A stretch of DNA of 64,000 nucleotides from Octopus vulgaris. Taxonomy: Eukaryota. Below, piece after piece: positions 3,962-58,305 of this stretch. Under the pieces are notes generated by a model. The model was not told the DNA's origin. It made no database searches and was given only the letters and a program-made list of their open reading frames with translations. The DNA is taken from the NCBI GenBank assembly GCA_951406725.2, contig OX597821.1:96720001-96784000 (forward strand), written 5' to 3'. A program made the translations under genes and the position numbers. The first letter of the stretch is position 1, and each line of letters starts with the position of its first letter.

Positions 3962-4013
3962 TGAGCTGACGAAAGAAATGTCGATTTGACTAATCTAGAA
4001 ACGTACGTTCTCA
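3962..4013 (+). ncRNA. Type I hammerhead ribozyme motif
   Basis: UGAG-CUGACGA-AAGA..UCUA-GAAA-CGUACG-UU-CUCA. Intact core, stem I UGAG/CUCA, palindromic stem III ACGUACGU; within a short element ending at (TA)n at 4190. Confidence 0.7.
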
Positions 4014-4488
4014 AATAACCTTTGCACTTGATTTTTTAATGTTTTTCCCCCATACCTTTGTGAGTTGGTTTGAGCAAACACTATCTGAGAGAGATCTTCT
4101 TTAAGTATTAGAAATAGCTAAAGAAATTTCTTTAGCTGCTATTTCTAATGAGTTCAGTATGTGGCAAAGTAATTTATTTTACTTAGCCCTTATATATATA
4201 TATATATATATATATATATATATATATATATATATATATATATATATATATATATATATATATGTATATATGTATATATATATATATATATATATATATA
4301 TATATATATATATATATATATATACTCAATATAAAGTAGTGTACGTTTAAACACAAGAGAAAACTATCCTTTAACAGATAATTTAATTTTTACACGCTAG
4401 AAGTAACAGTCAAAACGACCAAAAGCACATTTTATAGCATTTATCGAAGGAAATGAAAAACAAAAACTTTTACCGTGTTATTTTTTGC

Positions 4489-4557
4489 GGTTATACCGAG
4501 GTTTCAAATTTCTTTAGCAAATAAGATAATTTGCTAGGCGAATTCTCATCAATAAGC
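4489..4557 (-). ncRNA. Degenerate hammerhead motif (C3U) in a (TA)n-flanked element with a 475-nt-spaced direct repeat
   Basis: Minus strand GCUUA-UUGAUGA-GAAUUC..UAGCAAAU/AUUUGCUA..GAAAUUU-GAAA-CCUCGG-UA-UAACC. Direct repeat ctcaatataaa.tagtgtac.tttaaac at 4325 and 4800. Confidence 0.5.
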
Positions 4558-5535
4558 AGCCTTAACCACTAACTTATAATTCAGAGACAAATAACACGTG
4601 TCTCATCACTATATGTTATAATTTTTCAAAATTCAGCGCGCAAGCGCAGTTTCAGTCGACAGTATATAGATAATGCCAAGCTGATTCCTCGAGAATGCTA
4701 AGATCATATTCGTAAGATACATATATAGGGTAGCTAATATTCTTTGAAATATCACCACCAGTGGCCTAGCATGTATAAATAGTCAATAGACAACATATTC
4801 TCAATATAAAATAGTGTACATTTAAACTCCTACTGTAATCTCCAACTGGACAGACAAACGAACATCTCAAGAAAACCTAAAAACTTTAATATATTACCCA
4901 AATACGTAAACACAAGTTTATTGCAACAACACAATTTAATTCCAAAATTCAATGACGTGAATATCAGTATATATGTGTGTGTATATATGTGTGTGTGTGT
5001 GTGTGTGTGTGTGTGTATATATATTATTGCTTTTTTCTACCAGTAATTACAAATAGAACAGGTTTATTTGCCCCTCTTCAAGGCAGCGCTCCCAGCGGCC
5101 ACTGGAAGTAGTAAACACATTTGACTTCTGCTGACCCAAAGATTGCGAAGATTCTTTTGTTTTTATGGCTGACCTCCCCATCATCTGCCGAATCTATTTA
5201 TAGACCTGTAGAATATGATCTATTTCACCAAACTGCTGCCCAACTATTTCCTCTAACAATGGTAGTGGTGGTGATGGTGATAACGAAAAAAATTAAAATG
5301 ATAATAATATACTGCAGCTACTGATACTAAATACTACAAATACTACAATGATACAACTACTACTATTATGATAGCACAGGAATCTGAAGCCCAACTACCA
5401 CCCTTACCACTACCGCAAACACTGCAGCTACTACACAAAAAATTAATAATATCAGAGATATCAGTGATTATAGAAATAATAATAATAATAATAATAATAA
5501 TAATAATAATAATAATAATAATAATAATAATAATA

Positions 5536-7315
5536 ATATTCCAGGGAGACACGCTCTCTCCACTCCTTTTCTGCTTGGCACTGTCACCTCTATCTGATAT
5601 GCTAAATAGAACTGGATGCGGATATAAATGTTACGGCAAAACGATCAGCCACCTTTTATATATGGATGACCTAAAACTATACGCTGCAAATGACAAACAG
5701 CTGGAAACACTATTAAAGACAGTTCTTGGATTTACCAAAGAAATAGATATGAAATTTGGATTAGAAAAATGCGCCAAAGTAACCCTGAAAAGAGGAAAAC
5801 TAGTTAAGAGTAACAACATTACACTAGATAAAACCAATGAAATAAAAGAATTAGACCAAAGCCAAACTTACAAATACTTAGGAATCCATGAACTAGATAA
5901 GACACAACACACACAAATGAAAGAGAAAAAAAAAAAGAATATTATAGACGAGTTAGATCAATACTAAACACAGAGCTCAATGCTAAAAACGAGATAATAG
6001 GTATCAACACTTTAGCTGTCCCAGTTATAAGTTACAGCTACAATATCCTTAACTGGACACGAAATGAACTGACCAAAATAGATAGGAAAACAAGAAAAAT
6101 AATGACAGGATCTAGGATGCATCACCCAAAATCTGACATAGAAAGACTATATATACAACGTATAGAAGGTGGTAGAGGCCTTATACAGCTGGAAAACTAC
6201 TATAAAATAACCACCATAGGACTGCAAAGATATCTACTTCAGAAGGAAGGAAAACTGATCCAGATAGCGGCAAAACACGAGCAAAACAAAAAACTGTTCT
6301 CAGTATTTAAGGAAGCTGACAAATACAAACAAGAAATCATACCACCTAATAAACATGAAGAAGAAGAAGAAGATGAAGAAACAACAAAAGCTATAAAACA
6401 AATGAAATCCAAACTAAAAATAGAACAGCAACGAACCATGATAAAACGATGGCAAGAAAAGCCCCTTCATGGTAAATACTGGACTAAACTAAACGCAAAA
6501 GAAATAGACAAAGAAAAATTCCCAGCAATGGTTGAGAAGCTCAGGACTCAAAGCAGAAACAGAGGGATTTTTAATTGCAGCACAAGACCAAAGCCTCCCC
6601 ACCAGAAATTACCAAAAACATGTAATGAAAAGAAATATTACAAGTAACTGCAGAATATGTGGAGATGGACAAGAAACAATAAATCATATTATCTCTAGCT
6701 GCCCAGTCTTGGCTAAGAAGGAATATATTCACAGACATGACAGAGTTGGAACCTACATACATTGGAAGCTATGCCAACATTATGGAATAACAACAGAAAA
6801 AAGATGGTATAGGCACACACCAGAAAAGGTCACAGAAAACGAGAAAGCAACCATACTCTGGGATATGCCGATACACACAGATAGAGAAATTAAGGCCAAC
6901 AGACCAGATATAGTTGTCAGAGATCATGAAGAAAAAAAATGCTTTCTAATTGATGTATCAATACCGGCTGATGACAACGTGTCTCTAAAAGAAATGGAGA
7001 AACTCTCAAAATACAAAGACCTGGAAATAGAGGTAACTAGAATGTGGAATCTGAAAACAGAAACAATTCCTATCATAGTAGGTGCATTAGGCATGATAAA
7101 AAAATATTCAGACAAATACATAACAAAAACACCAGGACTTACAAACACATATAACATACAGAAAATTGCACTACTAGGCACTGCACACATCCTACGCAGA
7201 ACACTTTCCATACAATAACCATCAGAGCATCACAACAAATCACAGCACATACCCAAAGCACACAGAGCTGTGCTCGGTAGTGAGGTGAAAGCACGCTATA
7301 AAAATAAAACTACTG
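5536..7315 (+). mobile_element. 5'-truncated R4/Dong-type non-LTR retrotransposon (RT + CCHC + REL endonuclease) inserted in (TAA)n
   Basis: IFQGDTLSPLLF, YMDD, YKYLG, CRICGDGQETINHIISSC, RHD, RPD..IDVSIP, K..KY motifs across ORFs 5368-5967, 6102-6647 and 6532-7218; (TAA)n on both sides; two frameshifts. Confidence 0.92.
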
Positions 7316-7479
7316 AATAATAATAATAATAATGAAAGGAAACGGGTAGAGCCTCCTTATGGGCTGATTAATGATACATCTAGTGATGGTATCACAATAA
7401 AAACACTGGTAATTGCACAACCTGATAAATACTACCTCATATGAGTGACAATGAAACAACAAAATATTGTGAATAACGA

Positions 7480-56030: not shown

Positions 56031-56102
56031 TATATATATATATATATATATATATATATATATATATATATATATATATATATCTTTATATATATATATA
56101 TA

Positions 56103-56499
56103 TCTTTATATATAAAAGTGAGGTTGTGTGCTGTCTGTCTCCTACGATTTAGATTCCTAACTACTCCCACATTTTGCGGTGCAGTTTAACCAAAACCGGG
56201 TATCTTATAGTCGTGATTCATATCGAGCCCTTCTGGGTATTAGCGCGCGTCTACGATAAGTCTACGATTTTAAAAACAATTACCATCAATTTTTCCCATT
56301 TTTAATGCATTTTTGGCATATAGAAAGGAAGTAACTCTCTAAAAATTTATTATTAAATCTCAGAACGTAAAAAGCTACAGTAACACCCCCCCCCTTTGCG
56401 GTTAACCATATTGAGATAGCTATTATACTTTACATCTCTAAAAATGCTTACATAGTTATTTCCCTTACAAACCCGAGCAACGCCGGGCGATACTGCTAG
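56103..56499 (+). mobile_element. Non-autonomous Helitron
   Basis: a|TCtttatatataaaag ... cccgagcaacgccggg cgatactgCTAG|t. Confidence 0.87.
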
Positions 56500-56529
56500 T
56501 ATATATATATATATATATATATATATATA

Positions 56530-56895
56530 TAAAAGTTCAGTAAAAATTTAGATTCAGTTGAATATGGTACTTAAGTTAAAGGCACCAGAATTTGGTATAG
56601 TATCCATATAATTCAAAATGGGGTGATTATAATCAAAATAAGCAGCATTTAAATCATACCTCCGACGGGACTGATTTAAATGTTGCTTATTTTGATTATA
56701 ATCACCGCAGTACGATCGTTTCATGCGACTTCATTTAATTAAACAATCCAAGTATTACATCAGTTTTAAAATGTAGAGCAATCTTAAGCTGCATATGGAA
56801 TTTTTAGTTAAATTGAAAAGATTCATTTTTATACTTATTCCATTTACCAACATCACGAAGAGGCTAAGTAGATAGACAGAGAGACCAGTTTCATC
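56530..56895 (-). mobile_element. Diverged relative of the 12.6-13.1 kb element, with an internal hairpin and a mutated hammerhead
   Basis: Homologous to 12592-13150. Hairpin 56623-56706; HHR 56707-56792 with core CUUAAGA and perfect palindromic stem III ACGAUCGU. Confidence 0.7.
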
Positions 56896-58260
56896 AACAG
56901 AAACATGGTAGTAAATGATATTTATTCATGGATACACTTCTTATCATTGAACTTACTTTGTTATTTAGATTTACTATATATATGAATAAATAAATATATT
57001 CATCATAAGACGACAATATAGATTTTAAGTTAGATTGGTTCATACTGTCTGTATCCTTTCCTTTTGATAAGGGCAGGAGATTTTGTAACATTTGCAACTC
57101 TGAACTCTTCCATATTCTCTTCTCTAACACACTTATAGAGAAATCATACAAATGTAAACACTGGCAGAAACATACATTTTACTCATATAAATGATTTCGA
57201 TAGTCATTATAGTTTTGAACAATTAGTTTAACGTGCACTTCACTTCAACAGAGAAATCCTTTCCTAAGCCTTTGAACATTCTTTTAATCAACGTATCCCT
57301 CCCTCTCTATTTGTTCCCTATTTATTATTCCTTTAACCCTTCTCTTCCTACTATCTAACTTTGACGTCAATTCTACTAACGGTTTTTTTAAACACTTATT
57401 AACGTTTTGTTTATCATGTAGGCAGTCATCGTAATTATTATATTGTCTTGTTGTTGAGAGAGGGTCCCTTTCTTTCCTGATGAGAAGATTGCATCTTACA
57501 CCGTTTATTCCTTTGGAATAAAACCATGTTGTCTTCGAAACATATGTCGAAAGTAAAGGAATTTTATTAACATCTTCGTTCAGCTCCATTTATTTATTTA
57601 TTCATATATAACACACAAATTTCTGCACATGAACCCGGAGTTCTACCTTTGGATAGGTCGCTTCAACCGTGATTCTGGCGTGAATTTGCTACCCTGGTAT
57701 CGGTTCATCGAATTTTCCATGTTGACGGTAAACGTAGGATAATTCATTCACCCATCGAAATATATATATATATATATATATATTAATAAATATATATATA
57801 TATGTGTGTGTGTGTGTGTATGTATGTATGTATGTATGTATGTATGTATGTATGTATGTATGTATGTATAAATACATGTAGATCTATATATATATATATA
57901 TATATATATATATATATATATGTACTTATATGCATGTGTTTATGTGTATTTATATGTGCGCATACGTGTGTATATAAGCAAGCGCATGCATATATATAGA
58001 CGCACGTTTGTGTGTATGTGTGTGAGTGTATCTATATTGTTTGTGTATGTTTGTGTTTTTATGTATTTATACTTATGTGTATATATGCACACACATACAC
58101 ACACACACATATATATATATATATATATTAATAAAAAGAATTCCTACCTTGTCTGATTTTCACGTTTTATTTACAATCTTATAATGATATATTATAAGAT
58201 AATATATTATAATTGAATAAAATAAAATGAAATAGTAGAATGTTAAATATTCATTCTGAT

Positions 58261-58305
58261 TGAACTAGTACTTTCATGCATTGAATTCTGCAATCTTCGG
58301 GTTCA
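58261..58305 (-). ncRNA. Minimal type I hammerhead ribozyme in the PLE terminal repeat (U4C core variant)
   Basis: Minus strand UGAAC-CCGAAGA-U-UGCA(gaauucaa)UGCA-U-GAAA-GUAC-UA-GUUCA: stem I UGAAC/GUUCA, stem II UGCA/UGCA, palindromic stem III AGUACU. Confidence 0.72.

Follow-up and report, generated by a model that had tools for sequence, protein, structure and literature searches.

A window of 64,000 nucleotides of the Octopus vulgaris genome (assembly GCA_951406725.2, contig OX597821.1, positions 96,720,001 to 96,784,000, forward strand) contains a cluster of type I minimal hammerhead ribozyme motifs. With a probability of roughly 0.85, these represent the 3'-end hammerheads of nine families of Penelope-like elements (PLEs), mostly 5'-truncated copies of autonomous elements which are likely to have inserted themselves into (TA)n microsatellites, together with at least one non-coding tandem that likely borrows its enzymes. 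The PLE pattern is evident in 3' ends which are fixed at (TA)n, 5' ends which vary in position and frequent inversions upstream, and reverse transcriptase (RT) or endonuclease sequences occur in the longer copies. The mobilisation by PLE machinery proposed in a preliminary description of the window, which was made from its sequence alone, is supported by these features.

Hammerhead motifs in the window

The window has a GC content of 36% and is rich in microsatellites, within a genome of 2.8 Gb in 227 contigs. It was scanned with a type I hammerhead descriptor requiring the core, GAAA, a stem I of at least 4 bp, a stem II of at least 3 bp and NUH, which was written post hoc, with the sites already known, and run in identical form on shuffled sequences. 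Strict CTGANGA cores were matched seven times in the window, versus a mean of 0.01-0.06 (maximum of 1) per dinucleotide shuffle (2 x 100 shuffles), while relaxed cores yielded 11-12 matches versus 0.2-0.6 in the shuffles. The motifs are thus real type I minimal hammerhead sequences occurring above chance, as the preliminary description had expected. All of the 13 cores with pairing stems which it listed are hammerhead-derived, but only eleven are complete. Ten pass the descriptor (3966+, 4552-, 12957+, 13505+, 16420+, 28193-, 38618+, 55636+, 55901+ and 58300-), 4552- only if a stem I of 3 bp is allowed, and 12710- is complete by eye, its loop 2 exceeding the length permitted in the scan. The two broken sites are 15822, where an internal deletion has removed stem III and the 3' strand, and 56707-, where the core reads CTTAAGA. 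An additional intact motif, 57477+, had been overlooked and represents the fourteenth site. At its gathering thresholds Rfam returned zero matches in the window, missing all of the hammerheads, and the E-value rows listed (150 of 250) are artefacts in which miRNA models are placed on microsatellites.

The motifs sort into nine families (A-I), where at least six had been suggested. The family analyses are based on the 30 best-scoring copies fetched for each family, which are best matches rather than random copies. The loose descriptor is satisfied in 13-30 of these 30 copies, depending on the family, and NUH is retained in every family. Stem I differs between the families while remaining paired, although the descriptor itself requires this pairing. 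Stem III is self-complementary across the families in tallies of the fetched copies; eight of the nine stem III strands tested gave no monomer hairpin energy and all nine formed a self-duplex, in keeping with the PLE-type minimal hammerhead with self-complementary stem III which had been recognised earlier. The first stem II pair in families A, D, G, H and I is a U-U or A-A mismatch rather than G10.1-C11.1, and family D comprises two subfamilies distinguished by this mismatch, A-A and U-U.

Autonomous parents of the hammerhead families

Family I is represented in the window by an intact canonical PLE (58121-62485, -), consisting of one unit of ~4.27 kb and a terminal repeat of ~90 nt (58123-58211 = 62396-62485). 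Its hammerhead has the core CCGAAGA, with the U4C variant, at 58300 (-) and the stem III AGTACT. ORF2 (58800-61127, -), an open reading frame (ORF) of 775 amino acids (aa) from stop to stop, encodes an RT (DKG, YLDD), a CX4CxxC linker and, C-terminally, a GIY-YIG endonuclease, and the named eukaryotic homologues of the RT derive mostly from bivalve molluscs. ORF1 (61034-62326, -) begins with an ATG at 62326, has no Pfam match and overlaps ORF2 at a run of seven T residues (T7), the frame of ORF2 being -1. Family I therefore differs from the single-ORF arrangement of canonical PLEs. No ATG precedes the conserved N-terminal motifs of ORF2 (overlap 61034-61127). The U_UUU_UUU slippery-type run is kept in 22 of the 23 family I copies covering the ORF junction, suggesting that ORF2 may be expressed through programmed frameshifting; the structure past the run is weak (-6.9 kcal/mol). 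The 150 scored copies of the family are 99-100% identical over 251 aa, and its tandems are spaced 4,271 bp apart. Family I was also considered as the specific partner of the short families. The preliminary description had cast the neighbouring intact PLE in this autonomous role, which was rejected as no sequence is common to family I and the other eight families.

Families A, C, F, G and H match Hydra-type PLEs by their motifs, F, G and H putatively so through similarity to the features of A and C. One of the 30 family A loci (L339) contains a near-full, decayed Hydra-type ORF with DKT, a CxCX5C linker and an inverted terminal repeat. In the window, family A occurs as a Hydra-type PLE 3' end (12830-13145, +; core CTGAAGA at 12957) with the inverted, head-to-head arm of a 5'-truncated end (12592-12830, -; core CTGAAGA at 12710), and as a decayed copy (56533-56973, -) with the core mutated to CTTAAGA near 56788. 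The GIY-YIG C-terminus, belonging to an endonuclease without CCHH, lies ~280 nt upstream in six of the 30 family C loci. Among these is the 5'-truncated window copy (56967-57761, +), where an endonuclease remnant (56967-57191) is followed by an intact hammerhead with the core CTGATGA at 57477 (+), the stem III ACATATGT and a GUC site. This copy, together with the hammerhead at 58300-, which ends a coding element of 4.36 kb, contradicts the earlier statement that all the motifs lie in short non-coding islands. Weak endonuclease matches at a distance similar to that of family C were observed in two of the 30 loci of family H, which is represented by an old 3' end (38318-38747, +) with the core TTGATAA at 38618.

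In family G, found in the window as a 3' end truncated at the hammerhead (16417-16551, +; core CTGATGA at 16420), four of eleven extended loci have an endonuclease at an upstream distance of 2.7-3.9 kb, or more in loci with an intervening insertion. Both of the extended loci of family F have an upstream endonuclease of the family G type (88% DNA identity), which a later insertion has split off in each locus. The truncated family F 3' end in the window (13443-13605, +) has an inverted 3'-end fragment fused upstream, and its hammerhead (core CTGACGA at 13505, +) shows one substitution in stem III. In one of two extended loci of the long subfamily of family B, which comprises seven of the 21 position-ordered copies, a canonical endonuclease is found 2.9 kb upstream. 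The 3' untranslated regions (UTRs) of family G and long B are 2.7-2.9 kb in size, and (TG/TA)n or (AC)n sequence, degenerate but conserved, makes up most of them (L378, L382, L440/L446), so that these PLEs would spread microsatellite-like DNA. Whether each hammerhead family also terminates a full-length PLE, as had been asked in the preliminary description, can be answered with an intact element for family I and with RT or endonuclease sequences upstream in longer copies of A, C, F, G, H and long B, but not for D, E and short B.

Insertion pattern and proposed mechanism

The adjacency of the hammerheads to (TA)n, which had been noted at the outset, is borne out by the occurrence of (TA)5 within 250 nt downstream of 12 of the 13 cleavage sites tested in the window versus 16% of random positions, and of 17 of 23 sites in the genome sample described below versus 20% of random positions. 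The 3' ends are fixed at one or a few points per family and abut (TA)n, while the 5' ends are scattered; those 3' ends of family F often abut other dinucleotide repeats. An inverted copy is present upstream at 95 of 240 loci versus downstream at three, with some family D, F and G loci overlapping and hence not all being independent. No obvious pile-up of 5' ends at the cleavage site was seen among the non-targeted copies (2-35 per family), for which the BLAST ends are imprecise and the offsets ~1 nt off. Families A, C, E and F each have two discrete 3' end points at internal TA-rich sites, located at ~+110 and +210 from the core in family A and at +127 and +284 in family C, as would be expected if microhomology to (TA)n served for priming. 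Common targeting of (TA)n explains the crowding of the families in the window.

On the basis of established PLE biology, the GIY-YIG endonuclease would nick (TA)n and the nicked end would pair with a UA-rich site located ~50-230 nt beyond the point of ribozyme cleavage. Reverse transcription would then mostly stop early or invert, giving rise to short hammerhead-bearing stubs, and most of the single genomic stubs may be inert by-products. Available passages of PMC4209133 and PMC6765202 suggest that the hammerhead would act slowly, and mostly as a dimer via stem III, in reducing tandem or read-through transcripts to the length of one unit, and cleavage may be followed by circularisation of the RNA. 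As the genomic copies span the cleavage site, the template would be uncleaved or re-ligated (circular) RNA. Single motifs have likewise been described as 'probably related to truncated PLEs' (PMC4209133, in part), and the Hydra elements bear hammerheads and insert in (TA)n (PMC8557442, in part). Both self-cleavage of the hammerheads and a circular RNA of family D are predicted features.

Core variants and the function of the hammerhead

Several lineages carry variant cores, numbered here according to the standard scheme as checked against passages of PMC4209133 and PMC3088659. A compensatory U3-A8 pair is found in all 13 passing copies among the 30 of family H, the window copy included. The U4C variant occurs in 30 of 30 fetched copies of family I, in 98 of the first 100 matches listed for this family, and in 74% of the exact cores of family B. 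A further lineage related to family B, designated B2, is an autonomous canonical PLE with intact RT-endonuclease frames of up to 1,200 aa. It is located outside the window (L391-L420, e.g. C2:153875493), where no B2 hammerhead occurs. Its core is CUGUNGA (A6U) in 30 of 30 fetched copies, and genome-wide 16,765 exact copies have U6 versus 204 with A6. Position 7 of B2 is occupied by T in 41, A in 25, C in 21 and G in 13 of the first 100 copies listed, by hand count. No paper describing a natural A6U hammerhead, or cephalopod hammerheads, was listed, as judged from titles and abstracts, in literature searches which took in no supplements and were thin on subscription papers. An annotation of Octopus vulgaris repeats reports 31 recently active PLE families, and the terms 'ribozyme' and 'hammerhead' do not appear in the available portion of its main text (PMC13282606).

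These variants bear on the alternative that the hammerhead fold serves as a structural signal for a PLE protein, with its cleavage weak, incidental or lost, a proposal which is confined to the ribozyme step and does not conflict with a PLE origin. U4C, the variant carried by family I, which is young and intact, 'considerably decreases activity in vitro' (PMC3088659, in part), while at the position altered in B2 an A6C mutant is more than 10,000-fold slower in 0.3 mM Mg2+ than in Mn2+ (PMC7151607, in part). Naiad PLEs, furthermore, multiply without canonical hammerheads (PMC8557442, in part), and the spanning of the cleavage site by the genomic copies also fits such a structural role. Against this, U4C supports viroid infectivity (PMC3088659, in part), family H keeps its compensatory U3-A8 pair, NUH is retained in all families and position 7 of B2 varies freely, although G5, G8, A9 and GAAA in B2 were fixed by the search pattern. 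A role of this kind is, on this balance, rather unlikely, while remaining the best placed of the alternatives.

Non-autonomous families

Family D has a closed unit of 556-563 bp in which the longest ORF starting with ATG is 19 aa. Its copies range from monomers and dimers to a five-unit array accompanied by an inverted copy (L343) and a 14-unit array on C3, and the end of the previous unit is present in 14 of 30 loci, with units of 556-558 bp. The circular fold of the unit has a z-score of -6.3 with 63% of the bases paired, while four autonomous 3' ends used as controls range from +1.5 to -2.0. Two or more consecutive non-coding units which all contain a complete type I hammerhead and are strongly self-paired correspond to the working definition of a non-LTR (long terminal repeat) retrozyme adopted from available passages of 10.64898/2026.07.22.740005, applied with its energy filter left out, and family D is, as judged from its DNA, a retrozyme-type tandem. 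The array units differ by 3-14 substitutions in L343 and by only one in L187, and rolling on one circle accounts for this divergence no better than copying from mixed multimeric RNA does. Four contig sets presumed to be of RNA origin cover the unit but are uninformative as to strand, ends and circularity, and were not counted as evidence of expression. The window contains a 5'-truncated copy of the unit (3888-4196, +), which ends in (TA)n and has the core CTGACGA at 3966, the stem III ACGTACGT and a predicted cleavage after 4009. A family D junction fragment with an inversion and without a hammerhead, for which the strand is undefined, lies at 13227-13389.

Family E, with a unit of ~447 bp, retains the end of the previous unit in four of 30 loci and has a circular-fold z-score of -4.25, and is probably a non-autonomous, retrozyme-type family. 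Its window copy (4320-4828, -) comprises the unit (4719-4320), which is probably non-coding, and an inverted piece (4727-4828), and the core at 4552 (-) reads TTGATGA where most copies have CTGATGA. The short subfamily of family B consists of dispersed monomers of ~210-225 nt, and the few neighbouring copies are diverged and separated by (TA)n rather than arranged in tandem. Read by eye, the 5' ends of 13 of the 21 position-ordered family B copies cluster ~65-95 nt upstream of the core, and the furthest 5' extension has four exact matches versus 10,151 exact B cores. Short B is thus probably a SINE-like (short interspersed nuclear element) derivative and non-autonomous. A tRNA-derived SINE origin was also considered and was rejected, the window containing no tRNA gene. 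The short subfamily is represented by an internally deleted copy with an incomplete hammerhead (15763-15870, +), by a copy with the U4C core CCGACGA at 28193 and the stem III ACGT (28063-28276, -) and by a copy with the core CTGACGA at 55636 (55557-55767, +), adjacent to an older family B copy of ~76% identity with the core CTGAAGA at 55901 (55830-56029, +).

Families D and E and short B also provide the evidence for the view that most of the short families are dedicated retrozymes, spreading by circular RNA with the help of the neighbouring intact PLE. The retrozyme form is found in family D and, given its unit junctions and fold, probably in family E, and the clustered 5' ends of short B point in the same direction. 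Five short families and long B, however, lead into endonuclease or RT sequences, and family I shares no sequence with the others. The L343 units of family D also differ from one another by more substitutions than would favour this view, though those of L187 are not. A predominance of dedicated retrozymes is consequently improbable, and the retrozyme or non-autonomous system put forward in the preliminary description is narrowed to family D, where it is clear, and to family E and short B, where it is probable. Longer copies of A, C, F, G, H and I enter endonuclease or RT sequences and do not constitute closed non-coding units, and these six families and long B represent autonomous PLE ends. That the motifs are merely chance matches in AT-rich, microsatellite-rich DNA can be dismissed on the strength of the shuffles, for although relaxed descriptors give 0-6 matches per shuffled 600 kb and one relaxed match in the window (34320-) is probably of this kind, strict matches far exceed expectation, every site belongs to a multicopy family in which the motif is conserved in 13-30 of the 30 top copies, and reversed-pattern controls for the exact-match counts gave 0.

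Several observations weigh against a PLE origin for the motifs with borrowed enzymes for the non-coding tandem. With ORF2 of the family I element in the window as the tblastn query, no same-strand RT or endonuclease was found upstream in 240 loci; this query is too distant from the Hydra-type endonucleases, and its negative result is superseded by the B2 queries and by Hydra-type queries derived from the long copies, which found the parents. For families A, B, F and H the parent was assigned from one or two loci per family, and an upstream inverted copy was found at none of the 30 family B loci. No mobilising partner was found for families D and E or for short B, and one family E locus is abutted by an inverted Hydra-like endonuclease fragment, so that family E may have an autonomous parent. 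Finally, eight of nine predicted retrozyme dimers failed to cleave in vitro, according to available passages of 10.64898/2026.07.22.740005.

Genome-wide load

The density of hammerheads was sampled in 60 evenly spaced stretches of 10 kb (600 kb) on 17 contigs, a set which is biased to contig starts and lies outside C1, C2 and other contigs. The sample contains 13 CTGANGA and 11 CCGANGA matches, 24 in total, versus 0-1 in each of ten shuffles, and a few of the 24 look like chance matches by eye. The resulting density of one per 25 kb corresponds to ~112,000 motifs per genome (Poisson 95% interval 72,000-167,000). The preliminary description had extrapolated one motif per 5 kb to the whole genome, a figure which is too high; the density in the window is ~3.5x that of the sample (nine per 64 kb versus 24 per 600 kb with the same descriptor). 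Its expectation of a very large ribozyme load, however, holds at an estimated ~110,000 motifs. Exact genome counts of 7,519 and 2,632 30-mers for family B, 1,143 hammerheads for family I and 294 for family D agree with the sampled density estimate. At least eight more hammerhead families, absent from the window, were observed in the 600 kb sample (L034, L041, L046, L050, L055, L061, L063, L064, L084). Published counts, obtained with other descriptors, are ~9,000 for Xenopus and ~4,000 for coelacanth (PMC4209133, in part) and more than 6,000 for coral and up to 120,000 for axolotl (PMC7229834, in part), the axolotl genome being 28 Gb in size.

Comparison with known systems

PLE hammerheads and retrozymes have both been published previously, and the explanation given here is largely known. 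The motifs resemble the metazoan PLE minimal hammerheads described in the available passages of PMC4209133 (Cervera & De la Pena 2014) in their short stem I, a stem II bearing a mismatch or an additional nucleotide at its base, the palindromic stem III and the U3-A8 covariant core, as well as in the many families per genome, the predominance of single motifs from truncated PLEs and the opposite-strand pairs 100-700 bp apart. They differ in their number, subject to the difference in descriptors, and in the lineage-wide U4C and A6U variants, which are not mentioned in those passages. Among the natural core variants U4C, U3-A8 and A6C covered by parts of PMC3088659 and PMC7151607, U4C and U3-A8 are also found here, while in B2 at least 16,765 copies carry U instead of C at position 6.

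Families A, C, F, G and H share with the Hydra-clade PLEs (Craig et al. 2021, PMC8557442, in part) a GIY-YIG endonuclease that is C-terminal and without CCHH, the hammerhead and insertion in (TA)n, and family A additionally shares DKT and CxCX5C. That clade is described as small, with elements of less than 3 kb, whereas it accounts here for five of the nine families, with the clade assigned by motifs, and family G has a microsatellite-like 3' UTR of ~2.8 kb. Family I, B2 and long B resemble the Neptune/Nematis-type canonical PLEs of the same source in the order of RT and GIY-YIG with CCHH, the CX4CxxC linker, the tandem or inverted copies and the microsatellite targets; canonical PLEs are stated there to have a single ORF, unlike the two overlapping ORFs of family I. 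Family D, and probably family E, are similar to the non-LTR retrozymes (PMC7229834 and 10.64898/2026.07.22.740005, both in part) as non-coding tandems of low GC content with one type I hammerhead per unit, a self-paired predicted circle and forms ranging from monomers to multimers. The family D unit is above the 150-450 bp of PMC7229834 but within the 51-972 bp of 10.64898/2026.07.22.740005. Unlike these retrozymes, family D combines a PLE-type minimal ribozyme with direct marks of PLE insertion, namely the (TA)n target and the 5' inversion, while its circular RNA is a predicted form.

The system is notable for its scale and its Hydra-rich repertoire, for family D, on which the mobility of retrozymes driven by PLEs could be tested, and for the A6U and U4C lineages, which offer a natural means of probing whether PLE hammerheads must cleave. 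The role of hammerheads in endonuclease-positive PLEs is stated to be unclear (PMC8557442, in part), and young intact PLE families with canonical, U4C and A6U cores would allow a comparison of whether retrotransposition needs cleavage, while a retrozyme-type tandem which is young and carries the marks of PLE insertion bears on whether PLEs move retrozymes. Those of the ~10^5 latent cleavage motifs located in sense within genes could have consequences for host transcripts as well. A bolder and tentative suggestion, somewhat doubtful as a whole, is that slowed ribozymes may have been selected in the most successful PLE lineages, A6U, at a near-invariant position, and U4C being functional but conditionally cleaving so that sufficient RNA survives uncut or re-ligated for copying, that the family D retrozyme would be moved by PLE enzymes, as indicated by its insertion scars, and that the load would be among the densest described.

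Other repeats

Aside from the hammerhead families, the window contains the 3' region of a non-LTR retrotransposon (RT, zf-RVT) in two copies of 98.6% identity (5308-7333, + and 23267-24739, -) and an older RT fragment (8927-10277). The fragments at 19373-19990 (-) and 52951-53256 (-) presumably derive from Mariner/Tc1-like transposases, as inspection of the translations suggests. Two abundant SINE-like repeat families lack a hammerhead, the first occurring at 643-876, 23013-23245, 26141-26504, 36321-36736, 48076-48287 and 49224-50116 and the second at 3387-3838, 30171-30643, 32490-32822, 33559-34071 and 53870-55274. A (TA)n-flanked repeat of ~420 bp without a hammerhead match is present in three copies of 82-93% identity (47552-47974, 56099-56522 and 62948-63356). 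Among the loci fetched from elsewhere in the genome, L340 contains a single-exon ORF of 397 aa (150-1341, -) which by eye resembles a class A G-protein-coupled receptor.

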